NCBI RefSeq assembly: GCF_004376175.1
Contig: NZ_SNUY01000078.1
Span: 1-10,447 of the forward strand
Direction: 5' to 3'
DNA from: Halalkalibacterium halodurans
GTDB lineage: Bacteria > Bacillota > Bacilli > Bacillales > Bacillaceae_D
Length of the DNA stretch: 10,447 bases
Both the position numbers and the translations under genes were made by a program. Below the pieces are notes generated by a model. It did no database searches. It had not been told where the DNA came from and saw nothing but the letters and a program-made list of their open reading frames with translations. Shown here in pieces: positions 105 through 10,447 of this stretch (the first letter of the stretch is position 1; each line of letters opens with the position of its first letter).

Positions 105-428
105 TCATAGAACTTTTGACACTACCTCATCATTCATGATATTTTCGACCATATGAACATCTATCGCAGAATATTTAATACGGTTTTTTTGAATGGCATA
201 AAACAAAGTGTGATACATCTTACGTTTTGGATTACTTCGAGATGGCATTAATAAGAAAATGCTAACTCCCATACCAAAAACATAATAGGGAATGGTTAAC
301 GAAGAGTGAACCATTCCCTTAGATAGATAAAGAAAAAAAGCAGTTAGTAATAGAATGACAATCTCTTTAAGATGAAATGACTTGGTTATCTTTATCTCAC
401 TTTTAAAGTGTTTCGGAATTTCATACAA
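105..428 (-). CDS. Small two-TM T4SS membrane protein, PrgI/ConD/TcpE-type (VirB3-like), 107 aa
   Basis: Track ORF. The start is TTG (426-428), with a GGGAGGAAGG SD about 8 nt upstream. It lies 1 nt after the TAG stop (430-432) of the upstream gene, so the two are translationally coupled. An N-terminal IPKHFKSEIKITKSFHLKEIV segment is followed by two adjacent hydrophobic helices and a basic tail (RSNPKRKMYHTLFYAIQKNRIKY), which is the PrgI-family/VirB3-like layout. It sits directly after a VirB6-like gene. The family call is from recalled pattern only. Confidence 0.75.
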   Translation of the reverse strand: MYEIPKHFKSEIKITKSFHLKEIVILLLTAFFLYLSKGMVHSSLTIPYYVFGMGVSIFLLMPSRSNPKRKMYHTLFYAIQKNRIKYSAIDVHMVENIMNDEVVSKVL

Positions 429-429
429 G

Positions 430-2640
430 CTACCTTCCTCCCTTTCTCCAATCTCTTATTGTTCTTCCGATTCGATACCCTGTATTGTAACCTTTTACAT
501 GCTCTTCCTTGGCTTTCATAACTACTCTATTTTGCCCCCAAATAGTATTTGGGTGTTGGGCTGTTTTAAACCCTGTTTCCTTTGTAGTATCGTATGTGGT
601 TTCTTGATATTTTTCATTAGGTGCAGTACTTTCTCCACTCGGAACTGGCGCTGTACCTTGTACGCTTTCACTTGAAATTGGTGCAGTACTTTCTCCACTC
701 GGAACTGGCGCTGTATCTTGTACGCTTTCACTTGAAATTGGTGCAGTACTTTCTCCACTCGGAACTGGCGCTGTACCTTGTACGCTTTCACTTGAAATTG
801 GTGCAGTACTTTCTCCACTCGGAACTGGCGCTGTATCTTGTACGCTTTCACTTGAAATTGGTGCAGTACTTTCTCCACTCGGAACTGGCGCTGTACCTTG
901 TACGCTTTCACTTGAAATTGGTGCAGTACTTTCTCCACTCGGAACTGGCGCTGTACCTTGTACGCTTTCACTTGAAATTGGTGCAGTACTTTCTCCACTC
1001 GGAACTGGCGCTGTATCTTGTACGCTTTCACTTGAAATTGGTGCAGTACTTTCTCCACTCGGAACTGGCGCTGTATCTTGTACACTTTCGCTTGAAATTG
1101 GTGCAGTACTTTCTCCACTCGGAACTGGCGCTGTACCCTGACCAGCCTGTGCATTCAGATTCTGACCTTTCATGCCTTGATCAGCTTGTGCATTTGGATT
1201 CTGACCTTTCATGCCTTGATCAGCCTGTGCATTTGGATTCTGACCTTTCATGCCTTGACCAGCCTGTGCATTTGGATTCTGACCTTTCATGCCTTGACCA
1301 GCCTGTGCATTTGGATTCTGACCTTTCATGCCTTGACCAGCCTGTGCATTTGGATTCTGACCACTTGGGATTTTGTTATTCGCTTGATTACGTCTCGATT
1401 GAGATAAAGCGCCATTGTCTTTTTTTGCCCCATTAGTAGCTTGTATACCTGCCTTTAATCCCCCTGCTAAACCTACACCTTGATTGAATTTAGAGAAGCT
1501 TTCACTTACGAGTTTGCCCCCTACCTTTGATGTCACGTTTGATACAGCTTTACTAGCCATCACTAATCCTACACCTGTCCGCCAACTATCTTTTAATCCT
1601 GCGTCTACTCCTAGTATTCTTTCGACTAAGTGTGGACCATCAATAAGAGCAAGGCTAGCCGCTAATAATAGTAACGAGCTTCCAAACGACCCCAAAGACG
1701 ATTGACCACTTAGCCAGTTTGAAAAAAGCACATAGAATTTAAGAGACACTGCAAGAAAAAAGATAACCGCAAAATTGGAAATTATATCATTAATAATTTG
1801 TTTGATTCGCTGTCCTCCTGATAAATCTGTGACAGCTATAAATAAGCCAAACAGCTTTTTAAATGCTAACTCAAATATAATTCGTCCAACTTTTAAAACA
1901 GCTATAATTAACGTAATTCCAATCACAGATAAGCTAAAAATCGTATTCCACCAAGCTACATGCCAACGGTAGTAAAGTTCTTTACCAATACCAAACCATC
2001 CGTTGCCAAGTGGCTCTTCTCTAAAATTACCATTTGTGTCCATAACCAATTTGCTTTTTAAGTAATCATTATTTATATCATCACTGTCGGGATCTATCAA
2101 TTCATTAATATCTATATACGTTATTCGACTAACCGGAAGATCATTTACAAGTCCTTTTTCCGGTATTCTCACATTAAAATCCTTTTTTGCATAAAGGTAT
2201 ACATCAGCAATATTACCTTTAATAAGTTGTTCAGCATTTGTGCCAGCGCTAGTATCACCTATGGCTTTGACCCCTGCTGTTGTTATATTGTCTAAATTAG
2301 ACAATAGCAGGGGCAATGCAATAATAAACAAGAAAGCCAATAAAACATTAGTCACAACTCTTTCCCGATCTTGCATTTTCCCTGCCATAAACTTATATCC
2401 TATCCACACCAGTGATATTGCAACAAGTACCCATAATACCGGCGACCATTGTTTTATAAAGTTATTTACAGGTGCTGAGTTGAAAAATCCATTCATAGTC
2501 AATACTGTATCCGTCATACCTTCTACTTGGTTGACTAGCCACATAAGCCCTAAAATGAGCCACCAGCCTAACTCTCGAAGGGATGAACTAAGTATATTAG
2601 CAATGTTCAAAATCGAATCATATTGTTCTAAAACGTCCAA
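430..2640 (-). CDS. VirB6-like polytopic T4SS channel protein (ConG/TcpH/PrgH class) with a long repetitive C-terminal tail, 736 aa
   Basis: Track ORF. TTG start at 2638-2640, with a GGGGGAGA SD about 5 nt upstream, 11 nt after the stop of the upstream gene. Residues 1-340 contain about 7 hydrophobic helices, with a ~115-aa hydrophilic loop after the third helix (VirB6-type topology). The segment LIDGPHLVERILGVDAGLKDSWR after the last helix resembles Gram-positive VirB6 analogues. The C-terminal ~330 aa carry GQNPNAQAGQGMK x5.7 and TAPVPSGESTAPISSESVQ[G/D] x8.7 repeats, followed by a basic 60-aa end. Confidence 0.85.
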   Translation of the reverse strand: MDVLEQYDSILNIANILSSSLRELGWWLILGLMWLVNQVEGMTDTVLTMNGFFNSAPVNNFIKQWSPVLWVLVAISLVWIGYKFMAGKMQDRERVVTNVLLAFLFIIALPLLLSNLDNITTAGVKAIGDTSAGTNAEQLIKGNIADVYLYAKKDFNVRIPEKGLVNDLPVSRITYIDINELIDPDSDDINNDYLKSKLVMDTNGNFREEPLGNGWFGIGKELYYRWHVAWWNTIFSLSVIGITLIIAVLKVGRIIFELAFKKLFGLFIAVTDLSGGQRIKQIINDIISNFAVIFFLAVSLKFYVLFSNWLSGQSSLGSFGSSLLLLAASLALIDGPHLVERILGVDAGLKDSWRTGVGLVMASKAVSNVTSKVGGKLVSESFSKFNQGVGLAGGLKAGIQATNGAKKDNGALSQSRRNQANNKIPSGQNPNAQAGQGMKGQNPNAQAGQGMKGQNPNAQAGQGMKGQNPNAQADQGMKGQNPNAQADQGMKGQNLNAQAGQGTAPVPSGESTAPISSESVQDTAPVPSGESTAPISSESVQDTAPVPSGESTAPISSESVQGTAPVPSGESTAPISSESVQGTAPVPSGESTAPISSESVQDTAPVPSGESTAPISSESVQGTAPVPSGESTAPISSESVQDTAPVPSGESTAPISSESVQGTAPVPSGESTAPNEKYQETTYDTTKETGFKTAQHPNTIWGQNRVVMKAKEEHVKGYNTGYRIGRTIRDWRKGGR
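621..1140. repeat. 60-bp perfect-phase tandem repeat, about 8.7 copies, inside the VirB6-like CDS
   Basis: The unit gtgcagtactttctccactcggaactggcgctgta[c/t]cttgtacgctttcacttgaaattg starts at 621, 681, 741, 801, 861, 921, 981, 1041 and 1101 (the last is partial). One site toggles c/t (656+60n: c,t,c,t,c,c,t,t,c), giving Gly/Asp on the minus strand. The only other changes are two synonymous Ser-codon swaps at 1084 and 1090 and one synonymous Gln change at 1138. Confidence 0.97.
1141..1362. repeat. 39-bp tandem repeat, about 5.7 copies, inside the VirB6-like CDS
   Basis: The unit a[c/t]cagc[c/t]tgtgcatt[t/c][g/a]gattctgacctttcatgccttg starts at 1141, 1180, 1219, 1258, 1297 and 1336 (the last is partial, ending at 1362). 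It encodes GQNPNAQA[G/D]QGMK on the minus strand. The length is a multiple of 3, so copy-number change keeps the reading frame. Confidence 0.97.
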
Positions 2641-2651
2641 AAAATCTCCCC

Positions 2652-3389
2652 CTATAAGGTCACTGAAATATCATGCTTTGCTTTTTGCAAATACAAGAAA
2701 TTAAATAACAAAAATAAGTAAAAGACTGTAAAAATAACTAAAGTAATAGGGGAATTAAGAAAGTCAGCATATAGCTTACTAGCAAAGAGCGATAAAAGAA
2801 TAGGAACCGCAAATACAATACCTGTCATAAAATAAACTCTGTTCGCACTATATTTTTTCTCTCTCTGCAATTCATCCCTTTTAGTTGTCTCGAAGTTAAT
2901 TAATTTGCTAGTAGGACTGAAAAGATCTGTTACAGATCCCCCCATTTGATACTTAATCTCTAATATTTGATGGAAGGCATTTAGCGATACAAAATTATAT
3001 TTTTCAAAATGAGCTACATCGAGTACACCTTCTTGTTTGAGCGTTTTTATAGTCTTGTCTATATCCTTTTTCAATAAATCACTAGCCGATTCTTTAGCTC
3101 CTTCTAAGGCAAAAAGAACGTTTTTGCCTGTCTTTAAATAAAAAACAACATTTGAAACATACTTACTTAACTCACTAAAAATCCTCTGTTCTTTCTTTAA
3201 CTGCCTCCCCAACAATGAAATGCTATAGAAGCAAAGCAAAGACCCAACAAGCCCTAACAAAACGCTTAATACAACATGTTTGCTGATCATGTAGATGTAA
3301 AGAAAGTTGATACTAAAATAAAGGAGTAAATGGAGCAATACCACCCAACCAGAAAACAATTCTTTTGTTAAACCCCATACATCTTTCAT
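2652..3389 (-). CDS. Polytopic membrane protein with T2SSF (GspF/TadB/TadC)-like organisation, 245 aa
   Basis: Track ORF. ATG at 3387-3389, with an AGGAGG SD 8 nt upstream. Two N-terminal TM helices, a ~115-aa helical cytoplasmic segment, then two C-terminal TM helices. The central region follows the platform-protein pattern: SELSKYVSNVVFYLKTGKNVLFALEGA ... NAFHQILEIKYQMGGSVTDLFSPTSKLINFETTKRDELQREKKYSANRVYFMTGIVFAVPIL. The CDS is confident; the family assignment is moderate to low. Confidence 0.8.
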   Translation of the reverse strand: MKDVWGLTKELFSGWVVLLHLLLYFSINFLYIYMISKHVVLSVLLGLVGSLLCFYSISLLGRQLKKEQRIFSELSKYVSNVVFYLKTGKNVLFALEGAKESASDLLKKDIDKTIKTLKQEGVLDVAHFEKYNFVSLNAFHQILEIKYQMGGSVTDLFSPTSKLINFETTKRDELQREKKYSANRVYFMTGIVFAVPILLSLFASKLYADFLNSPITLVIFTVFYLFLLFNFLYLQKAKHDISVTL

Positions 3390-3415
3390 TTTTTTAACCT
3401 CCTGTTTTGATTAAT

Positions 3416-3450
3416 AAAAAAAGGCTTACAAGTCCAATCACTTGTAAGCC
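3416..3450 (-). terminator. Rho-independent terminator downstream of the primase gene
   Basis: On the minus strand: GGCTTACAAGT-gattgg-ACTTGTAAGCC (perfect 11-bp stem at 3423-3433/3440-3450, 6-nt loop) followed directly by TTTTTTT (3416-3422). The plus-strand reading has no T-tract, so it is unidirectional. Confidence 0.85.
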
Positions 3451-3470
3451 CCGAAAAAATCCCTAATAAC

Positions 3471-3499
3471 AATATAGCACGCTTTGAGTACCTTGTTAG
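3471..3499 (-). promoter_or_regulatory. Candidate sigma-A type promoter (extended -10) in the primase/245-aa intergenic region
   Basis: On the minus strand: CTAACA (3494-3499, 4/6 to TTGACA), a 17-nt spacer ending in TGC, then TATATT (3471-3476, 5/6 to TATAAT). That gives a TGnTATATT extended -10. It is only a sequence match, and the spacer also contains a 5-bp inverted repeat AGTAC...GTACT. Confidence 0.3.
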
Positions 3500-3526
3500 T
3501 ACTTAAATAGTTCATAAAAAGTTCGT

Positions 3527-5134
3527 TTAACCAACTTCCTTTTGAGATTCTTTTTCTTTGTTTTTAGTTTTTAATGGCTTTGTTAAATCTAAAATCTTGT
3601 TAGAAAAATCCTTAGAAGTCTTAACAAAGCTATTTATTTTATCACCCTTAAAATAGTACGGTGTTGATACATAATCTTTTCCTTTACTCTTACCTGTTAC
3701 AATTCCATTTACAATTAAATTACGATAACCAATATTAACAGATATATTACCGTTAGAGAAAGTATGTGAATGAATGATTTTAGGATCAAACTTCCCCCCC
3801 CCTGAACTAATATTAATCCCTACATTCTTAACTGTATTTTTTTCCTTAACCTGATGTTTAAGCTCATAGTAACTTTTAATCAACGCCCCTTCTATCATTC
3901 GTTTATCAAGGCTTTCTTCAAATCTATACACATCCCTCCATACACTATCAGTCCCCTTTTTTTGTGGATAATTAATCATAGGTGAACCTTTATATTCCTC
4001 TATTACAATATTATTGAGAGTTATCTCACCGTACTTCACACATGCAAGGGAAATTCCTTTATCTTGCAAAAAGGTCATATTAACAATCTTAACTTTATAA
4101 TCATTTGATTGCTCTGTTTTGTCATTCATTTTCTCACCCTCCTCTTTTTTCAAATCTATGTCTAAGGTTCTTAAAGTTAGCTCTATTTGTCGCTCAAAAA
4201 GTAAGCGGTTGCTTTGGAGTAAGTCATTAGGATCTTTTAGATCCATATCTGGATAAATAAATCCTTTATGAAACAACTTCTCTTCATCCAAAACGTGTGC
4301 TATTTTTTTATCTGCTTCTTTTCCTGCTCTATCATTGTCAAAAGCTCTAATAATCTTTTTCCCCTTAAACTTATCAGGGTTTTCTTTTATAAATGTTTCA
4401 AGCTGTTTTATTTTATTTGAACCTGTAGTCATTAATAAACCCATTTTCGGATCTATTTCTCGGAATGATAGTCCGTCTATAATACTTTCACTAATAACAA
4501 CAGTTTCAGCATTATCCGGTATATCTTCGACAAAATATCTTGCTTTCTCTGTTGGATTTAAAAATAACTGGATTTCTTTCTTCTTTAGACTAGGATCAGA
4601 CGACCTTAATAACAACGAGTCAATTGATCCTTCATGATTGTAAATAGGAAAAACAATATTCCTCTTTGTCATAAAGTCCATTTTCGCATAGTCTTTTTTG
4701 ATTAGGTCAGGGATTTTCGAGAACATAAGTGATACAATCTTAGGATCTTTTAGATCCAAAATGAAAGGTTTCGTAACTTCTCGATTTATCCCCCGATAAT
4801 TTTCTAATTCTTGATTTACAACATGTTTACTCATGAATTTAAAAAAATTAGTACACCAGTCGATTTGCTCTTTTTGTTTTAAAGAGATACTTTTAGGTTT
4901 TTCGTTTTTCTTTAAGTTCAGATTACCTTTTAGTTTTTCATTTAGTTTAATATGCCAACGTTCACCGCAATTATTTTGCCTATTGCACTGTAACACATTA
5001 AGATTATCTTTATACATAAATGCTTCTGGCTGATTACAAGATGGACAAGTACATAAAAAATAACGCCCCTGTGGTTGAGCGTTTAAAGATTCCAACATAT
5101 CATCAATATTCCTAAACTCTAATTGATTCACCAT
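3527..5134 (-). CDS. Plasmid/ICE-type DNA primase: N-terminal Cys-rich zinc ribbon + Toprim domain + C-terminal tandem SpoVG-like domains, 535 aa
   Basis: Track ORF. ATG at 5132-5134, with a GAGGT SD 7 nt upstream. Cys cluster C28-x-C30-x2-C33 ... C50-x5-C56. Toprim signature: acidic Glu in VVISESIIDGLSF (E216) and DxD in IIRAFDNDRAGKEAD (D266/D268). Residues ~346-425 and ~436-517 each resemble SpoVG (see findings). Confidence 0.85.
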   Translation of the reverse strand: MVNQLEFRNIDDMLESLNAQPQGRYFLCTCPSCNQPEAFMYKDNLNVLQCNRQNNCGERWHIKLNEKLKGNLNLKKNEKPKSISLKQKEQIDWCTNFFKFMSKHVVNQELENYRGINREVTKPFILDLKDPKIVSLMFSKIPDLIKKDYAKMDFMTKRNIVFPIYNHEGSIDSLLLRSSDPSLKKKEIQLFLNPTEKARYFVEDIPDNAETVVISESIIDGLSFREIDPKMGLLMTTGSNKIKQLETFIKENPDKFKGKKIIRAFDNDRAGKEADKKIAHVLDEEKLFHKGFIYPDMDLKDPNDLLQSNRLLFERQIELTLRTLDIDLKKEEGEKMNDKTEQSNDYKVKIVNMTFLQDKGISLACVKYGEITLNNIVIEEYKGSPMINYPQKKGTDSVWRDVYRFEESLDKRMIEGALIKSYYELKHQVKEKNTVKNVGINISSGGGKFDPKIIHSHTFSNGNISVNIGYRNLIVNGIVTGKSKGKDYVSTPYYFKGDKINSFVKTSKDFSNKILDLTKPLKTKNKEKESQKEVG

Positions 5135-6978: not shown

Positions 6979-7010
6979 AAAAAAAGATGGTGAGTTAATA
7001 ACTCACCATC
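6979..7010 (-). terminator. Rho-independent terminator downstream of the 75-aa gene
   Basis: On the minus strand: GATGGTGAGTT-att-AACTCACCATC (11-bp perfect inverted repeat at 6986-6996/7000-7010) followed by TTTTTTT (6979-6985). It starts 8 nt after the TAG stop at 7019-7021. Confidence 0.85.
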
Positions 7011-7018
7011 CTACATTT

Positions 7019-7246
7019 CTAGAAGGCAACTACCCCTCTTAAACTGTCTCGTAACGCTCCTGCTCCCAGCACAATCACCAGTCCAACAAGAAGCCATGTA
7101 ATATTTCGCTTGCCCTTTTCCCTACCTTCTTGTCCTCCTGCAAAGAAGTTATACCCCGCCATACATAACATTACTGCACAAAAAGCCCACGCAGGCATTT
7201 GAATAAGCCCTAAGAAGTTTATTAAAGTAGAAATTACACCCTGCAT
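7019..7246 (-). CDS. VirB2/TrbC-like small two-TM protein (pilin-type T4SS subunit), 75 aa
   Basis: Track ORF. ATG at 7244-7246, with a GGAGGA SD 8 nt upstream. Two hydrophobic helices are separated by a short charged loop (GGQEGREKGKRN). The pattern LINFLGL...AFCAVMLCMAGYNFFAGG...LLVGLVIVLGAGALRDSLRG parallels mature Agrobacterium VirB2 (FILGPFGQSLAVLGIVAIGISWMFGR...GGIVIMFGASFLGKTLTG). This is recalled similarity, not a search result. Confidence 0.7.
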   Translation of the reverse strand: MQGVISTLINFLGLIQMPAWAFCAVMLCMAGYNFFAGGQEGREKGKRNITWLLVGLVIVLGAGALRDSLRGVVAF

Positions 7247-7273: not shown

Positions 7274-7462
7274 TTAATCTGATACTGCTTCTAAAACAAA
7301 AGATAGATTTTCTGTGATTACTTTTTCATGTTGTGAATGTAGCCATTCATTGTAATCCACTCCTTTCAGAGCAAGAATTTTTTCAGCTTGCTCCTTCTTT
7401 GTTTTAAAATTACTTGGCTTCTTTCTTGGTCTATTTTGCTGTTCATTTTTCAGTTGTTCCAT
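7274..7462 (-). CDS. Small basic soluble protein of unknown function, 62 aa from the preferred start
   Basis: The track ORF (83 aa) starts at 7525, inside the upstream gene. The ATG at 7460-7462 has an AAAGGAG SD 8 nt upstream, and this SD overlaps the TAA stop (7476-7478) of the upstream gene. Sequence: MEQLKNEQQNRPRKKPSNFKTKKEQAEKILALKGVDYNEWLHSQHEKVITENLSFVLEAVSD. Confidence 0.65.
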   Translation of the reverse strand: MEQLKNEQQNRPRKKPSNFKTKKEQAEKILALKGVDYNEWLHSQHEKVITENLSFVLEAVSD

Positions 7463-7475
7463 ATTCTCATCTCCT

Positions 7476-10010
7476 TTATTCCAACGAAATAATATTAGAC
7501 AACCTTTCGTATAGGTCACCATCACTTGTTCTAAAAGAATGTAATAGCTGAGGTTGATCCTGCACCAATTCGAGTATTAGATTCTTTTGTGAATCCTTAA
7601 TCTCGACAGCATGTGTATAACTAACATTTAACGTAGATTCAGGTTGTTCATTGACGTATACGTCATCATAAACAGATCCTAATAGATACTTCTGAAAAGC
7701 AAATTCTTTACCAAAGTCAAGCGTTAGATCATTAAGTGTGAGCTTACCCAAAACATAATGATTCTTATACTGTCTCTCTCTATTCAGAAATGACTTTGGA
7801 TCAACAGGTAAATAGTACCTTTGACCATCAAAAGTTGTTATGTTTTCATTACTAAATTTTGACTTAGTAATTGATTCATACTCTAACTTTGCCTGTTTCT
7901 TTATATCTTCCTTACTTGACTTTCTAGGGACTGAGAACTGAAACCCTGTTTTATCTAAAATAAAAAAATCATCTTTAGCACCAAAATACGCCTTATACTG
8001 GTTTGCTTCACCCTCTTGTATTTCTATTAACTCAAGGGGAATTGCATACTCTGTATAGGCGTAAGCAGTTTTATTTTGATATTTTTTCTGTATAGATTCA
8101 TCCAAATCTACAGGGTAAAGGAACATAAAATCCTCGTCAATGTTATAAGGGAATGGCTCTCCAAAGTCTGATTTGTACTCTATTGGCTTATCAAATATCG
8201 GAAGCCAACTTTGCGTGAGTAAAGTAATCATTCTTTGATCATTAAGCTTTAGTGACTCATAATAACTTTCTTTTTCCCCTTTCGAACCTACCTCTACCGT
8301 TTGCCCTATTAAGAATCTGTGATCAGTACCAAATTCTAAATTATAGGTTTCATTATATGGATAATCTAAGTTAAACGTTTCTTCCCACTGGAAGCTTTTT
8401 TTATACTCTTTATCCCACACAGGTGTACTATCTTTGTAGATCCACTCAAAACAATGCTGTCCTTGTTGATCAGTACAAGTATAATTACGCCTAAAATGGT
8501 TCGTATACTCATAAGAAAAAGAAAACAGAACATCCCTTTTTTTTACATCCAATGGTTGTAACTTCGTTGAAAATGGTTCATCCTCTACGTTGTTAAATAC
8601 ATTTGCTGAATAGATACGATTTTCTACATTTTGTACATCAAAGTGCAACCCTGCAACCGTAGCAGAATTAACCAATAAGGTTTCACTAGGGTTATTTTCT
8701 TTAATTTTTTGTAAGCGCCATGATACTTCACCTTGAGCTTTCCCTTCTGTTGCACCATCTAATTCTTCTATACTGGAAGGGTTCGGCAAAGATACTTTGT
8801 AGGTAAATGTAAAATTCATATTGTTATTTGGTGTAGTCCCTTCATATTTTTGTCCTTCTGGCGAAGCGACAAAAGGGTTTCCGTTGGAATCCTTAAAAAA
8901 TCCAGCCTTCTCAGGTGCATACGAGTAAGAGTTTCCAACAGTAGATTTTACCTTCGTTTGCATTAATATCTTGCCTGTCGCGTAATCCTTATGAGTAATT
9001 GTTACATCAACTGTACATCTTTGATTGATGTTTACTATTGACCCATCTGGACAAACCTTTTTGGTTACTTGGTACGATAGAGTAGCAATAGTACCACCAA
9101 AAGCCCAATAGCTACTAGCTGCCCATCGAGTTCGTCCTGAATCATGAGGGCTACTGACACCATACCAAACAACAGTACTCTTTTGATCTTGGTTCACACG
9201 TTGATAAAAGCGATTGTAGTCAAAATAGTTGCCACTGTTTGTAGTCCCTCTTGGTTCGATTCGCCTGATAACACCATTTCCAATCATACGTAACTGTTGA
9301 GCGTTAATCCCACTAGAAAGGCTAATTTCACCATTACCCCAAGATAGATTTTCAAACTCAAAAGGTAAACGCAATTCGTCATAAAGAACAGTTGAACCTA
9401 CTCTTTTGACAATACGTAACTGCCAATCAGAGTTATTTTCCCCATCCTTAAAAAGCTCATCTAATGGAACATGCGCTCTAAACCCTACATGTTCATAATA
9501 CATGTTGCAAGTTGCATTATTTTGGTTTCTAGCACTATTCGCACAAGGGTTCCAAATATCCCCCGTTTGAGACTGACGGTTGAACTCCATATCTTTTGAA
9601 GCGTTAAAATTAAGTTGTTCCGCTTTATAAAACTTGTCTTCCCCAGTCCTAATATTTTTAAGCCAAATGTATGTGTCTTGGTTATTTTCTGTGTGGTGTC
9701 TATGTCCAATAACTGCTGACCATCCTGTGAAAGTTAAATATTGCCTACTACCTTTTCCAAAGTCCCTACGTTTAATGCTCCAGCCTTCTTTTCCGTCTCT
9801 TTGCATATAAACATCATATACCATCTTTTTTCCACTTTCGAAAGTAGCAGATCGATCTCCTTTTGTCCTCTTGTTTACATCGCTCATTTTAACGTCGTAA
9901 GGACTGTAACTATTCGCTAATCCATTTTCAGGGAAAGCCAACCAAAGAGCAAACCAAAGAGCAAATAATGAAAACACAACAGTTATATAGGAAATTGCTT
10001 TCTTCATCAT
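7476..10010 (-). CDS. Large secreted surface/adhesin-like protein with a MucBP-like beta domain, 844 aa from the preferred start
   Basis: The track ORF begins at a TTG at 10049, inside the upstream terminator. The ATG-ATG at 10005-10010 follows an AAAGGGGGTGAGGGA SD. It has a classical Sec signal peptide (MMKK + AISYITVVFSLFALWFALWLAF + PENGLA/NS). Residues ~346-419 in track numbering (VDVTITHKDYATGKILMQTKVKSTVGNSYSYAPEKAGFFKDSNGNPFVASPEGQKYEGTTPNNNMNFTFTYKV) fit the MucBP pattern. There are three short-range Cys pairs (169/181, 333/345, 525/533). There is no C-terminal LPXTG or TM anchor. Confidence 0.85.
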   Translation of the reverse strand: MMKKAISYITVVFSLFALWFALWLAFPENGLANSYSPYDVKMSDVNKRTKGDRSATFESGKKMVYDVYMQRDGKEGWSIKRRDFGKGSRQYLTFTGWSAVIGHRHHTENNQDTYIWLKNIRTGEDKFYKAEQLNFNASKDMEFNRQSQTGDIWNPCANSARNQNNATCNMYYEHVGFRAHVPLDELFKDGENNSDWQLRIVKRVGSTVLYDELRLPFEFENLSWGNGEISLSSGINAQQLRMIGNGVIRRIEPRGTTNSGNYFDYNRFYQRVNQDQKSTVVWYGVSSPHDSGRTRWAASSYWAFGGTIATLSYQVTKKVCPDGSIVNINQRCTVDVTITHKDYATGKILMQTKVKSTVGNSYSYAPEKAGFFKDSNGNPFVASPEGQKYEGTTPNNNMNFTFTYKVSLPNPSSIEELDGATEGKAQGEVSWRLQKIKENNPSETLLVNSATVAGLHFDVQNVENRIYSANVFNNVEDEPFSTKLQPLDVKKRDVLFSFSYEYTNHFRRNYTCTDQQGQHCFEWIYKDSTPVWDKEYKKSFQWEETFNLDYPYNETYNLEFGTDHRFLIGQTVEVGSKGEKESYYESLKLNDQRMITLLTQSWLPIFDKPIEYKSDFGEPFPYNIDEDFMFLYPVDLDESIQKKYQNKTAYAYTEYAIPLELIEIQEGEANQYKAYFGAKDDFFILDKTGFQFSVPRKSSKEDIKKQAKLEYESITKSKFSNENITTFDGQRYYLPVDPKSFLNRERQYKNHYVLGKLTLNDLTLDFGKEFAFQKYLLGSVYDDVYVNEQPESTLNVSYTHAVEIKDSQKNLILELVQDQPQLLHSFRTSDGDLYERLSNIISLE

Positions 10011-10037
10011 TAGAAGTCCCTCACCCCCTTTTCGAAT

Positions 10038-10070
10038 AAAAAAACACAAAACCTAGTAGCTTCGTGTTTT
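10038..10070 (-). terminator. Intrinsic terminator of small-peptide cassette 1
   Basis: Minus-strand RNA: AAAACACGAAGC-uacuag-GGUUUUGUGUUUU followed by further U (7 U in a row, 10038-10044). The core stem is 8 bp with two G.U pairs, flanked by A/U pairs. It overlaps the TAA stop at 10069-10071. Confidence 0.7.
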
Positions 10071-10224
10071 AGAATACATTGCGAATCGTATCTGTAATAC
10101 CTTTAAAAACAGTATCTACTGTTTGACTAAACCATCCATTATCACCACCAAGTGCTACCCCTAGCACTCCAAAGAGCATTACAGCAAGAACAATTAAAAA
10201 CAAAGATCCATTTTTTTCACCCAT
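10069..10224 (-). CDS. 51-aa single-TM membrane peptide, cassette copy 1 (not in the ORF track)
   Basis: Hand translation of the minus strand gives ATG (10222-10224) ... TAA (10069-10071): MGEKNGSLFLIVLAVMLFGVLGVALGGDNGWFSQTVDTVFKGITDTIRNVF. The SD AAAGGGGGTGA (10/11 match to AAAGGAGGTGA) ends 5 nt before the ATG. An identical peptide is encoded 209 bp upstream, with only a synonymous difference. Confidence 0.8.
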   Translation of the reverse strand: MGEKNGSLFLIVLAVMLFGVLGVALGGDNGWFSQTVDTVFKGITDTIRNVF

Positions 10225-10246
10225 CAGTTTCACCCCCTTTTCGAAT

Positions 10247-10279
10247 AAAAAAACACGAAACCTAATAGCTTCGTGTTTT
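10247..10279 (-). terminator. Intrinsic terminator of small-peptide cassette 2
   Basis: Same hairpin as at 10038-10070, but the stem G.U pair is a G-C pair here (10257 g versus 10048 a on the plus strand) and the loop differs by one base. It is followed by U7. Confidence 0.7.
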
Positions 10280-10433
10280 AGAATACATTGCGAATCGTAT
10301 CTGTGATACCTTTAAAAACAGTATCTACTGTTTGACTAAACCATCCATTATCACCACCAAGTGCTACCCCTAGCACTCCAAAGAGCATTACAGCAAGAAC
10401 AATTAAAAACAAAGATCCATTTTTTTCACCCAT
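10278..10433 (-). CDS. 51-aa single-TM membrane peptide, cassette copy 2 (not in the ORF track)
   Basis: ATG at 10431-10433 and TAA at 10278-10280. The protein is identical to copy 1, with a single synonymous ATT/ATC difference at Ile43. It has the same consensus-like SD. Confidence 0.8.
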   Translation of the reverse strand: MGEKNGSLFLIVLAVMLFGVLGVALGGDNGWFSQTVDTVFKGITDTIRNVF

Positions 10434-10447
10434 CAGCTTCACCCCCT

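Follow-up and report, generated by a model that had tools for sequence, protein, structure and literature searches.

The window, the whole stretch of 10,447 nucleotides analysed here, ends in a tandem pair of separately translated genes for one and the same small single-pass membrane protein. The 51-aa product is very probably a genuine, selected and dosage-amplified component of a conjugation system, and it may be a subunit of an unrecognised mating filament. By its gene content the locus is a T4SS operon of the Gram-positive pLS20/pAW63 class, with Halalkalibacterium halodurans as host (locus tags E2L07_18200-18230), an assignment made because co-directional VirB6-like, DUF5592, VirB2-like and Toprim primase genes are all present; VirB4, VirD4 and relaxase genes lie outside the window. 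The features are as follows.

105..428, minus strand: 107-aa DUF5592 protein, at the VirB3 position in this T4SS class (PF17332, E = 1.9e-20)
430..2640, minus strand: 736-aa VirB6-like T4SS membrane protein of the pLS20_p028 family (NF045890, E = 6.8e-114)
2652..3389, minus strand: 245-aa polytopic protein, remotely TadB/TadC (T2SSF)-like (BLASTP to ATPase-adjacent proteins, hhalign)
3527..5134, minus strand: 535-aa Toprim/DnaG-like conjugative primase (Toprim_2, E = 2e-11)
6984-7012: own terminator of the 75-aa VirB2-like gene
7019..7246, minus strand: 75-aa VirB2-like T4SS pilin with two TM helices (PF18895, E = 2.6e-8, above cut-off; NF045849)
7274..7525, minus strand: small soluble protein with a conserved Y-x-[DE]-W-L-H-x-x-H motif, always ahead of the VirB2-like gene; its real start is probably an internal ATG (MEQLKNEQ...)
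7476..10010, minus strand: 844-aa protein, secreted or on the surface, with a signal-like segment at its N-terminus (no domain match)
10021..10031, minus strand: third SD block, the repeat junction, serving the 844-aa gene (sequence reading, unit alignment)
10031..10070, minus strand: intrinsic terminator after the proximal copy, with one G.U pair (dG -14.7 kcal/mol, z = -3.2)
10069..10224, minus strand: proximal 51-aa peptide gene, identical product (Ile43 ATT versus ATC the only coding difference)
10230..10240, minus strand: AAAGGGGGTGA, the SD ahead of the proximal copy, with a 5-nt spacer to the ATG (sequence reading)
10240..10279, minus strand: intrinsic terminator after the distal copy, all-Watson-Crick stem (dG -16.8 kcal/mol, z = -4.2)
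10278..10433, minus strand: distal (upstream) 51-aa peptide gene, ATG to TAA (family HMM, E = 5e-20)
10439..10447, minus strand: AGGGGGTGA, the SD ahead of the distal copy, truncated where the window stops (sequence reading)

Two of the profile assignments can be set against their cut-offs and exceed them, that of the 736-aa protein to NF045890 (380 bits, cut-off 150) and that of the 75-aa protein to PF18895 (34.3 bits, cut-off 26.6). The 736-aa protein has a tandem-repeat region at its C-terminus.

A single tandem array was found by TRF at 10021-10447 (period 209, 2.0 copies, 98% match, score 826), and a minus-strand alignment of unit 10021-10229 with unit 10230-10438 has 4 differences in 209 columns: A/G in the SD-ATG spacer, the synonymous ATT/ATC at Ile43, C/T in the terminator hairpin loop, and T/C in the stem, giving G.U in the copy beside the 844-aa gene and G-C in the upstream copy. 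Both units encode the identical product MGEKNGSLFLIVLAVMLFGVLGVALGGDNGWFSQTVDTVFKGITDTIRNVF. The preliminary description of this DNA had given the 209-bp period, the two units and their four differences, and also the identical peptide, near-consensus SD, 5-nt spacer and hairpin/U7 terminator; all are as it had them. The 844-aa gene is preceded by an identical SD block beyond which the sequences diverge, and the sharing of 10021-10031 confirms the further claim that this gene reuses the block and that the duplication junction lies at the SD. The label 'adhesin' then given to the 844-aa protein finds no support: there is no domain match, and pLS20 has a characterised adhesin of another kind, an LPXTG/thioester protein (PMC8092201). 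Nor does the window bear out an array continuing past its end, as its last 9 nt are the distal copy's own SD and a third ORF is not visible. A second sample (Logan ERR1034890, L004) has the same peptide 3' end, terminator and SD ahead of the large gene; that contig ends within the peptide gene, i.e. in the repeat, and the window's own contig probably does likewise.

Each array terminator comprises a 13-pair stem, a 4-nt loop and U7, with the TAA of the distal peptide copy sitting within the 5' arm of its hairpin, and for either hairpin none of 200 shuffles was as stable. A private terminator for each copy had earlier been seen as part of the design. It is a fact of the window, and strong hairpins are present in Peribacillus, but there is none between the copies of the B. 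cereus and B. subtilis pairs and as a family-wide design it was rejected.

How far does the peptide extend beyond this one locus? A near-identical search of plasmids with the array DNA had no match, and tblastn with the 51-aa peptide by itself returned noise only. The family was found instead via synteny with the 844-aa gene, a conserved neighbour of the peptide genes whose homologues on plasmids of Bacillus and Paenibacillus are 36-40% identical. It numbers 57 cluster representatives at E < 1e-3 (among 1.84 billion), almost all of 47-73 aa and with an alignment that begins at residue 1. The common layout is an MGEK-x-G N-terminus, a TM helix of ~20 residues, an F-P hinge and an amphipathic C-terminal helix; in the window's peptide the TM core occupies residues 8-27 and the amphipathic helix residues 31-51 (muH 0.63-0.78). 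The extreme N-terminus is the most conserved stretch, with the pattern M-G-E-K-x-G-[SGA]-L-F-N-[IM]-[IV] (G2 in 39, E3 in 45, K4 in 34 and G6 in 44 of 48 members), and the C-terminal tails differ from member to member and have many Gly, Ser, Thr and Pro residues. The GxxGxxxGG face to which attention had been drawn is there in the window's peptide but is without conservation across the family. The N-region has a net charge of 0, the C-terminal part is net acidic, and the positive-inside rule gave an ambiguous topology.

The peptides of pLS20 and pAW63 form a distant branch (HMM E = 2e-5; hhalign 70%, E = 3.9e-5), which was found at 208 places on at least 120 plasmids, including pLS20 itself with 3 copies and pAW63 with 1. 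The pLS20 tandem genes (WP_013603204 and neighbours, between gene 40 and the VirB2-like gene, about genes 41-43) belong to the same class of operon, and the pAW63 member, WP_000886822, is likewise a distant one. They differ from the window's peptide in an N-terminus of the form MLDQN-x-DR rather than MGEK-x-G and in the placing of their genes after the ATPase module considered below, not ahead of a large surface-protein gene.

The preliminary description did not recognise the family, and there is indeed no named family for the peptide in Pfam, NCBIfam, PHROGs, PADLOC or PDB: PHROGs gave a single match (E = 0.003, in 1 of 13 members), PADLOC none, a PDB sequence search with the peptide profile noise only, and Rfam, at E up to 1, nothing. 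Family genes are often left unannotated, and the pLS20/pAW63 members are all labelled 'hypothetical'. In the text of PMC8557374, on the pLS20 family, a look for 'gene 40' to 'gene 43' found the small tandem genes unmentioned; among the open-access papers and bioRxiv texts consulted, none was found in which they are characterised or in which a Tad-like module is put forward for pLS20-class plasmids.

Whether copy number varies in related plasmids had been posed as a check, and on Bacillus-type conjugative plasmids the gene is found in 1-4 copies in tandem: two in the window, in two B. cereus-group clades and in pSX01705-1, three in Peribacillus, L012 and pLS20, and elsewhere up to four. The multi-copy condition is a recurrent, selected state. 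Within arrays pN/pS is 0-0.2 (10 paralogue comparisons), with 8 synonymous and no non-synonymous differences in the L012 array and 9 synonymous versus 2 non-synonymous in that of L002; these counts show the peptide to be under purifying selection. The start codon, for its part, switches among ATG, GTG and TTG, with M-G-E-K retained. Between paralogues pS is 0.03-0.22, as against 0.66-0.79 between clades with the same two-copy layout, and variable residues are reshuffled between copy 1 and copy 2. Since the differences within arrays are nearly all synonymous and the copies are far closer to each other than orthologues are, the comparison indicates purifying selection together with concerted evolution or repeated duplication. 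That the short ORFs are real genes, as had been supposed, is upheld by homologous arrays that differ almost only synonymously, and of the two causes previously offered for the strict conservation of the peptide, purifying selection or gene conversion, the first is borne out.

The neighbours of the peptide genes in relatives suggest what the product might do. In Peribacillus, L012, pLS20 and pAW63 the genes lie beside a module with a T2SSE ATPase (E = 1e-24 to 1e-26 against T2SSE); the window has no such ATPase. In 5 of 5 cases the best NCBIfam match of this ATPase was TIGR03819, 'TadA family conjugal transfer-associated ATPase', below the cut-off of that model and with the score against VirB11 only slightly behind; its best non-Firmicute tblastn matches were CpaF. 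The window does have the 245-aa ORF, which matches the ATPase-adjacent proteins of relatives (BLASTP 7e-55, 8e-47 and 9e-5) and whose homologues there are directly downstream of the TadA/CpaF-like ATPase. When aligned by hhalign with TadB/C references from three genuine Tad loci, the 245-aa family reached 87.7-90.5% against TadB (E = 1.3e-6 at 90.5%), a 229-aa family 92.2% against TadB+C (E = 6e-7) and the two merged 95.9% (E = 5.6e-9); reversed, shuffled and unrelated controls gave at most 1.8%, and TadB against TadC, the positive control, 98.2%. The Pfam T2SSF model (HMMER) had no match to the polytopic proteins, the 245-aa and 229-aa profiles found nothing above noise among PDB sequences, and an AF2 model of the 245-aa protein, for which one homologue was retrieved, was unusable at pLDDT 50.6. 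The two polytopic proteins, the window's 245-aa ORF among them, would on this evidence be TadB/TadC-like platform proteins, an identity reached by profile-profile comparison only.

Relatives also encode, near the peptides, proteins of 113-120 aa with a peptide-like N-terminal motif. The window has none, but in its clade such proteins begin MGELKG (pBS72), MSEKMG (Peribacillus) and MGEKKG (L026), and in pLS20 and pAW63 peptide and 120-aa protein have an MLD start in common; the motif of the larger proteins thus co-varies with the N-terminus of the peptide. The annotations of pBS72, pLS20, pAW63 and the Peribacillus plasmid list no prepilin peptidase; profile searches covered part of their ORFs, and a host peptidase could serve.

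Several known systems invite comparison. Like the peptide, Flp pilins are of ~50-60 aa with an N-terminal hydrophobic helix and then a short amphipathic segment, and their genes are often in tandem paralogous copies, e.g. flp1-3. The company is also alike: a TadA/CpaF-like ATPase, a pair of paralogous T2SSF-type platform proteins and larger proteins with the pilin's N-terminus. In contrast to Flp/Tad loci, the peptide operons are without CpaB, secretin and TadZ, a prepilin peptidase was not found in their annotation, and the peptide genes are embedded in the T4SS operon of a monoderm. Membership of Flp/Fap (PF04964) was rejected, there being no Flp_Fap match in Pfam for 13 members at E up to 10, and the 58-member family aligned with three Flp pilins at 1.4%, like its reversed control at 0.8%. 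Absent from the family too are the G/xxxxEY prepilin site with its 10-26-residue leader (the leader here could have at most 6 residues) and the Glu+5 of type IV pilins.

VirB2/PrgF pilins resemble the peptide in being small, hydrophobic, poorly conserved and missed by annotation, and in being encoded in the same operon with a terminator after the gene; they have two TM helices and a charged loop, where the peptide has one TM helix. Homology to VirB2 was rejected on the single hydrophobic segment, the want of a Pfam match and an hhalign figure of 1.2% (6 same-operon VirB2-like proteins). TatA/TatE share with the peptide a short N-terminus, single TM, hinge, amphipathic helix and loose tail, and the need for a high copy number. 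The amphipathic helices of TatA are basic. The peptide differs in its acidic C-terminal part, in having no TatC partner and in its T4SS context, and membership of TatA/B/E (PF02416) was rejected at a best E of 0.72, in 2 of 13 members. The IncI1 (R64) thin pilus and PAPI-1 furnish the precedent of one element with both a T4SS and a type-IV-filament module. Theirs are canonical type IVb pili of Gram-negative hosts, with PilS-type prepilins, a PilU peptidase and PilV adhesins, whereas the components in the peptide operons are barely recognisable. In IncI and PAPI-1 elements type IV pilus and T4SS are combined for transfer in liquid (PMC12857230), and pLS20 is stated to prefer transfer in liquid, where plasmids of its class mate well (PMC11730352).

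Our preferred reading, a tentative one in which we place somewhat less than even trust, is that the peptide is a dosage-amplified, pilin-like subunit of a Tad-like module, outside the Flp and VirB2 families; a pilin-like mechanism as such we hold a shade more tentatively still. Gene dosage, a near-consensus SD and the terminators would together yield a large molar excess of peptide over the products of the downstream genes, and read-through of both terminators would still supply the 844-aa and T4SS genes. Processive antitermination is a feature of the pLS20 family, and in relatives the first gene is ArpU-like. As the major pilin-like subunit the peptide would be handled by a Tad-like type-IV-filament module inside the conjugation operon, made up of the TadA/CpaF-like ATPase, the two TadB/TadC-like proteins flanking it and the 113-120-aa 'minor-pilin-like' proteins. 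The resulting filament or pseudopilus might work at the cell surface, together with the large secreted protein, in forming mating contacts or keeping them stable; it would complement the VirB2/VirB6 DNA conduit rather than replace it. Any pilin role would have to be in such a different, Tad-like filament, since the T4SS pilin proper is the 75-aa protein, a PF18895 protein of the PrgF type (preprint 10.64898/2025.12.18.695078). The original suggestion of an abundant pilin-like subunit accordingly gains contextual support from the Tad-like neighbours and loses the place of the T4SS pilin to that protein. On a broader scale, plasmids of the pLS20/pAW63/pXO2 class could hold a second, highly diverged Tad-like machine, its ATPase labelled 'VirB11' and the peptide its major subunit, with the fibre, perhaps together with the large secreted protein, mediating donor-recipient contact in liquid; this we consider possible but doubtful. 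No filament has ever been reported for plasmids of the pLS20/pAW63 class. Counted against the pilin reading were the lack of Flp similarity, of a processing motif and of an annotated prepilin peptidase, the negative T2SSF result with HMMER, the near-equal VirB11 score of the ATPase, the ambiguous topology and, in the window, the absence of ATPase, TadB-like and minor-pilin-like genes from their usual place, where the 844-aa gene adjoins the peptide genes instead.

It is rather unlikely that the peptide is an abundant T4SS membrane subunit or assembly factor of high stoichiometry that never forms an external fibre, for instance a lipid-facing oligomer or chaperone of the VirB2-like, VirB6-like or large secreted protein, or a TatA-like membrane-thinning oligomer. 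The family is strictly tied to T4SS operons, whose gene order varies: the peptide genes of the window, of pBS72 and of the B. cereus plasmids are apart from the ATPase module and near the VirB2-like gene, and in L020, an integrase-bearing element whose 13-kb contig has no ATPase, the gene comes immediately behind that for T4SS_pilin. A TatA-type architecture, weak matches to TatA_B_E and LapA and the want of a pilin signature fit as well. However, those Pfam matches do not rise above noise (E = 0.7 and 0.017, in 2-3 of 13 members) and the acidity of the C-terminal part is unlike TatA; further, the N-terminal motif that the 113-120-aa proteins share, and with which they co-vary, is left unexplained, and a TadA-like ATPase with two TadB/C-like partners would be otherwise without a substrate.

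A membrane-active effector whose copies raise the dose, serving in entry exclusion or immunity or acting as a holin-like peptide, a toxin peptide or a type I toxin, is improbable. A small hydrophobic peptide with an amphipathic helix, encoded near surface proteins at an operon start and, to judge from its SD and terminators, designed for strong expression, could be such a thing. Against this, there is no PHROGs or PADLOC match and no Rfam antisense/sRNA family, a convergent promoter or antitoxin-like feature is not evident, and exclusion by pLS20 is assigned to another protein, the 390-aa Ses of gene 29 (PMC11730352). Strict N-terminal conservation in common with larger proteins is unexpected for a toxin, and toxins are seldom kept as 2-4 identical expressed copies in a structural operon.

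Very improbable is a Sec-processed precursor that would release a 25-aa amphipathic C-terminal signal or bacteriocin-like peptide. The Ala-Leu-Gly/Gly-Asp after the hydrophobic stretch of the window's peptide invites the idea, but the N-region has no net charge, the stretch of ~20-22 residues is of TM length, and the cleavage site is unconserved, with F-P-[DE] there in most members; the variability of the tails means that there is no conserved mature peptide, and the most conserved part, the extreme N-terminus, would be thrown away. The earlier suggestions of Sec cleavage, bacteriocin, exclusion and toxin have in short no positive evidence. Lastly, it is scarcely conceivable that misassembly produced the array or that the repeat is non-coding, for despite the uncertainty of short-read copy number where contigs end in the repeat, four ordered differences tell the two copies apart, the same tandem layout is present on closed plasmids from many laboratories, and the substitution pattern is that of coding sequence.

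How do Gram-positive conjugation systems bridge two thick cell walls? Only in December 2025 did a preprint propose VirB2-like pili for Gram-positive systems (10.64898/2025.12.18.695078), while the latest nomenclature review has Gram-positive T4SSs universally without VirB11-type ATPases (PMC12857230). If true, a Tad-like fibre would account for the anomalous 'VirB11' of Gram-positive systems and also for efficient mating in liquid. The TadB/C-like identity predicted here for the two polytopic proteins is newly recognised, and the link with a TadA-like ATPase turns 'hypothetical' genes of pLS20 into a concrete hypothesis for a family present on well over a hundred plasmids of Bacillus, Listeria and Enterococcus type, among them relatives of the anthrax plasmid pXO2. 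Should the pilin idea prove mistaken, the definition of the family, the survey of its copy number and the case of concerted evolution in a gene of 50 codons remain useful, the last bearing on small-protein annotation and on T4SS stoichiometry.

Every gene of the window is encoded on the minus strand. Tandem Repeats Finder reports 10021-10447 as a single array (period 209, 2.0 copies, 98% matches, score 826), and alignment of its units gives, as the preliminary description had it, differences at 4/209 positions: one in the SD-ATG spacer, the synonymous Ile43 ATT/ATC, one in the hairpin loop, and one in the stem that is G-C in the distal copy and G.U in the gene-proximal one. Each unit runs from AAAGGGGGTGA through 5 nt to an ATG, 51 codons and a TAA placed in the 5' arm of a hairpin that has 13 pairs and a U7 run after it. 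Folding energies of the two hairpins are -14.7 and -16.8 kcal/mol (z = -3.2 and -4.2; 0/200 shuffles equalled either). Recurrence of the SD block ahead of the 844-aa gene places the duplication junction at the SD, again as proposed.

10069-10224, minus strand: peptide coding sequence, gene-proximal copy
10278-10433, minus strand: peptide coding sequence, distal copy
10021-10031, minus strand: SD block repeated ahead of the 844-aa gene

The further suggestion that the array runs on past the window end is not borne out by the window, whose final 9 nt are solely the distal copy's own SD. Short-read assemblers break contigs at repeats, and a contig from a second sample (L004, Logan ERR1034890) stops partway through the peptide gene after matching the window in the 3' end of that gene, the terminator and the SD; the copy number in the H. 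halodurans element is thus given as at least two. In the peptide, residues 8-27 form a hydrophobic core and 31-51 a strongly amphipathic helix (muH 0.63-0.78).

A search with the peptide alone matched only itself, and the family was reached via synteny with the 844-aa gene, whose homologues (36-40% identity) are on Bacillus and Paenibacillus plasmids. Directly upstream of these homologues are small ORFs of the same design, two each in B. cereus pRML02 and B. subtilis pSX01705-1, one each in pBS72 and P. larvae. The profile built from them matched 15 clusters, and when 1.84 billion representatives were searched exhaustively with an HMM, 57 matched at E < 1e-3, 9 of them at E < 1e-10. Nearly all members are 47-73 aa with the alignment starting at residue 1. 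The N-terminal consensus M-G-E-K-[KS]-G-[SGA]-L-F-N-[IM]-[IV] (Glu3 in 45/48 members) is followed by a ~20-residue TM helix, a hydrophobic-Pro hinge (at position 29 in 27/48), an amphipathic helix and a variable Gly/Ser/Thr/Pro-rich tail; the start codon ahead of GEK is ATG, GTG or TTG depending on the element, with the N-terminus unchanged. The preliminary description recognised no family, and none with a name was matched in Pfam, NCBIfam, PHROGs, PADLOC or PDB sequences, nor did the DNA match Rfam. The peptide belongs to a real, unnamed family, widespread and uncharacterised, to which the array adds a new member.

Copy number and repeat period, from a family HMM scan over every six-frame ORF in the retrieved loci
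Window: 2 copies, period 209 bp
Four B. cereus-group clade A plasmids: 2 copies each, period 207-208 bp
Four B. cereus-group clade B contigs: 2 copies each, period 210 bp
pSX01705-1: 2 copies, period 204 bp
Peribacillus asahii plasmid: 3 copies, period 279 bp
Metagenomic contig L012: 3 copies, period 236-237 bp
pBS72, P. larvae plasmid and integrase-bearing element L020: 1 copy each, no period

Copies within an array differ almost wholly at synonymous sites (synonymous versus non-synonymous 8 vs 0 in L012, and 9 vs 2 and 7 vs 2 in two further relatives' loci, L002 and L013), and this, with pN/pS of 0-0.2, shows that the ORFs are translated and that purifying selection acts on them. Within arrays the pS between paralogues is 0.03-0.22, as against 0.66-0.71, with ~12 residues different, between B. 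cereus clades A and B, which have the same two-copy layout; every clade-specific change is present in both copies, and the distribution of the S/N34 and N/S45 polymorphisms between copies 1 and 2 varies among plasmids. The pattern is that of concerted evolution through gene conversion. A series of recent duplications would account for it less parsimoniously, and on either account multiple copies are favoured time and again. The peptide had been thought to be kept by purifying selection or gene conversion; signals of both were found. The private terminator per copy is present in the window and in the Peribacillus array, where a strong hairpin follows every copy, but it is not a family trait, since folding of inter-copy DNA gave no hairpin between copies in the B. 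cereus and B. subtilis pairs.

The window is a portion of a pLS20-class Gram-positive conjugation operon, with these ORFs:

430-2640, minus strand: 736-aa ORF, VirB6-like pLS20_p028 family (NF045890, E = 6.8e-114)
107-aa ORF: DUF5592
535-aa ORF: Toprim primase
75-aa ORF with two TM helices: T4SS_pilin (PF18895 and NF045849)

For pCF10 PrgF, a two-TM VirB2-like protein, a conjugative pilus on a VirB6 pentamer has been shown experimentally, and the same pilus is predicted for most Gram-positive plasmids (10.64898/2025.12.18.695078, December 2025 preprint); that screen demanded two TM helices, so the single-TM peptide would have dropped out. For the 844-aa protein the preliminary description's 'adhesin' is a tentative label: the protein has a signal-like N-terminus and no domain match in Pfam or NCBIfam; the characterised pLS20 adhesin, a thioester/LPXTG protein, is distinct from it (PMC8092201). 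In the signal-peptide region of the 844-aa gene (9936-9965, minus) a 12-nt tandem repeat, AGCAAACCAAAG, in 2.5 copies encodes an FALW repeat within the hydrophobic core of the signal-like N-terminus. Since the independent sample L004 (100-140) has one unit fewer (840 aa vs 844 aa), this is a length-polymorphic repeat within a signal peptide. The VirB6-like gene holds two long in-frame tandem repeats at 620-1362 (60 nt x 8.6 and 39 nt x 5.7; 96-98% identity), giving TAPVPSGESTAPISSESVQ[DG] and GQGMKGQNPNAQA in the C-terminal part, an extension of low complexity that probably spans the wall; pLS20 has a similar repeat block close by (L022 2441-3430).

In several elements the peptide genes share one block with recurring partners.

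Gene order in three arrangements
Peribacillus and L012: large surface protein, peptide x3, ~130 aa, ~115 aa, ~229 aa polytopic, T2SSE ATPase, ~245 aa polytopic
pAW63: 1415-aa surface protein, 124 aa, peptide, 119 aa, ATPase, 277 aa, 249 aa, 120 aa, 48 aa, 83 aa, VirB2-like
pLS20: ATPase, 267 aa, 141+ aa, 120 aa, peptide x3, ..., VirB2-like

The top NCBIfam match of the ATPase was TIGR03819, 'TadA family conjugal transfer-associated ATPase', in 5/5, narrowly above VirB11 and with every match under cut-off; beyond Firmicutes, tblastn pairs it best with CpaF from Tad loci. The protein encoded after the ATPase is a homologue of the window's 245-aa ORF (Peribacillus 35% identity, 7e-55; pBS72 8e-47; pLS20 9e-5; pAW63 277-aa protein 99.8% by hhalign). 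Against TadB/TadC profiles from Tad loci of Rhizobium, Ralstonia and Sinorhizobium, the 245-aa family scored 87.7% (E = 3.4e-6, 156 co-linear columns), with controls at 0.4% (reversed template), <=0.1% (columns shuffled 20 times) and 0.6% (VirB6-like membrane protein, unrelated). Enlarged profiles raised the signal: 90.5% for the 245-aa family against TadB, 92.2% for the 229-aa family against TadB+C, 86.8% for the two families against each other and 95.9% for the two merged (E = 5.6e-9, 189 columns), with reversed controls at <=1.8% and TadB against TadC, the positive control, at 98.2%. As Pfam T2SSF gave no HMMER match to the polytopic proteins and the AF2 model of the 245-aa protein was unusable (pLDDT 50.6), it is by profile comparison alone that the two appear TadB/C-like.

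The 113-120-aa proteins carry the peptide's own N-terminal motif, then a TM helix and globular domain (pBS72 MGELKGLCISVLIF..., Peribacillus MSEKMGFLFTIAIF..., L026, a further relative, MGEKKGMLFTILII...), and in the pLS20/pAW63 clade the peptide starts MLDQN... and the 120-aa protein MLDG... or MLDS.... In type IV filaments a small abundant major pilin and larger low-copy minor pilins share a co-varying N-terminus; by analogy the peptide would stand to the 113-120-aa proteins as major pilin to minor pilin.

The best-supported reading is of a dosage-amplified structural subunit, most likely serving as the pilin-like substrate in a diverged Tad-like module, which would operate alongside the VirB2/VirB6 conduit. 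Of the abundant pilin-like subunit proposed at the outset, the partner genes (ATPase, TadB/C-like proteins, shared N-terminus) speak in favour; Flp similarity and a processing motif are missing. That a conserved and selected peptide, multi-copy and T4SS-linked, also polymerises to form a fibre is a step that we infer. The main rival is a membrane part of the T4SS needed in high stoichiometry without forming a filament. Several results count against a fibre: hhalign gave no Flp similarity (1.4%), the family has neither the G/xxxxEY motif nor Glu+5, no prepilin peptidase is annotated on pBS72, pLS20, pAW63 or the Peribacillus plasmid, topology is ambiguous by the positive-inside rule, the window between primase and 245-aa gene is without the usual ATPase, TadB-like and minor-pilin-like genes, and in L020 a family member adjoins T4SS_pilin with no ATPase nearby. 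Little or nothing supports reading the peptide as toxin, exclusion factor or secreted peptide, or the array as an artefact. A functional precedent exists in IncI plasmids and PAPI-1, which pair a T4SS with a type IV pilus; in IncI that pilus serves liquid mating (PMC12857230). pLS20 is noted for mating in liquid (PMC11730352). The latest review has VirB11 homologues universally missing from Gram-positive T4SSs (PMC12857230), and neither the TadB/C-like nature of the polytopic proteins beside 'VirB11' nor the pilin-like N-terminus common to the small peptides and 113-120-aa proteins is in the searchable literature (open-access papers, bioRxiv). What emerges, with only moderate mechanistic certainty, is a candidate type-IV-filament-like subunit and module within a Gram-positive conjugation system.

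Distant members extend to pLS20 itself, where two adjacent small ORFs match the family HMM (E = 2e-5 and 7e-5; 58-member family against them 70%, E = 3.9e-5, hhalign) and the DNA has three ~172-bp tandem units between the 120-aa 'gene 40' and the 76-aa VirB2-like gene. By tblastn the 47-aa pLS20 product has 208 places on 120 plasmids: 3 in every pLS20-type plasmid, the reference NC_015148.1 among them, 1 in pAW63, 4 each in one plasmid of B. pumilus and one of Brochothrix, with Enterococcus plasmids matched also. Annotation either calls these genes 'hypothetical' or omits them; the pLS20-family paper, searched by the names gene 40 to gene 43, makes no mention of them and describes the family as without VirB2 (PMC8557374). 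In the pLS20-type plasmid NZ_CP032864.1 the third unit (L022 1254-1396) is frameshifted, +1 and -1 at homopolymer runs, which could be sequencing error or a true pseudogene. pAW63 has a second small single-TM ORF (L029 12136-12282, minus; 48 aa, MLENNVFRLMILMGGVIALIAIITLC...) with the M-L-[DE] start common to peptide and 120-aa protein; it may be a further divergent family member or a separate small component.

Some observations concern the rest of the operon. From primase to 245-aa gene the window has a gap of only 137 nt (3390-3526), where pBS72 (L010 16570-22739) has ~130-aa and ~118-aa N-TM proteins, VirD4, a TadB-like 236-aa protein and the T2SSE ATPase, so the coupling protein and ATPase module must lie elsewhere in the window's element or have been lost. 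Immediately upstream of the VirB2-like gene (7274-7525, minus), and kept in every lineage examined, is a small soluble protein with no Pfam or NCBIfam match and the motif Y-x-[DE]-W-L-H-x-x-H (window VDYNEWLHSQHEK, pBS72 LSYDDWLDEQH, pLS20 ISYDDWLHDQHK, L012 NYYEWLHEMH, pRML02 NYYDWLHEAHEK), which may be a dedicated partner of the VirB2-like pilin. A strong intrinsic terminator (6984-7012, minus; 13-pair stem and T-run) lies 3' of the 75-aa VirB2-like gene, and the operon has at least three internal terminators, each after a small, presumably abundant membrane protein, which implies read-through control, for example processive antitermination as described for pLS20. At the head of the operon, where pLS20 has its antiterminator gene conAn1, pRML02 (L001 1065-1499), the Peribacillus plasmid (L009 3523-3993) and pBS72 (L010 3300-3722) have an 'ArpU family phage packaging/lysis transcriptional regulator' gene, which may supply the conAn1 function under a different annotation.
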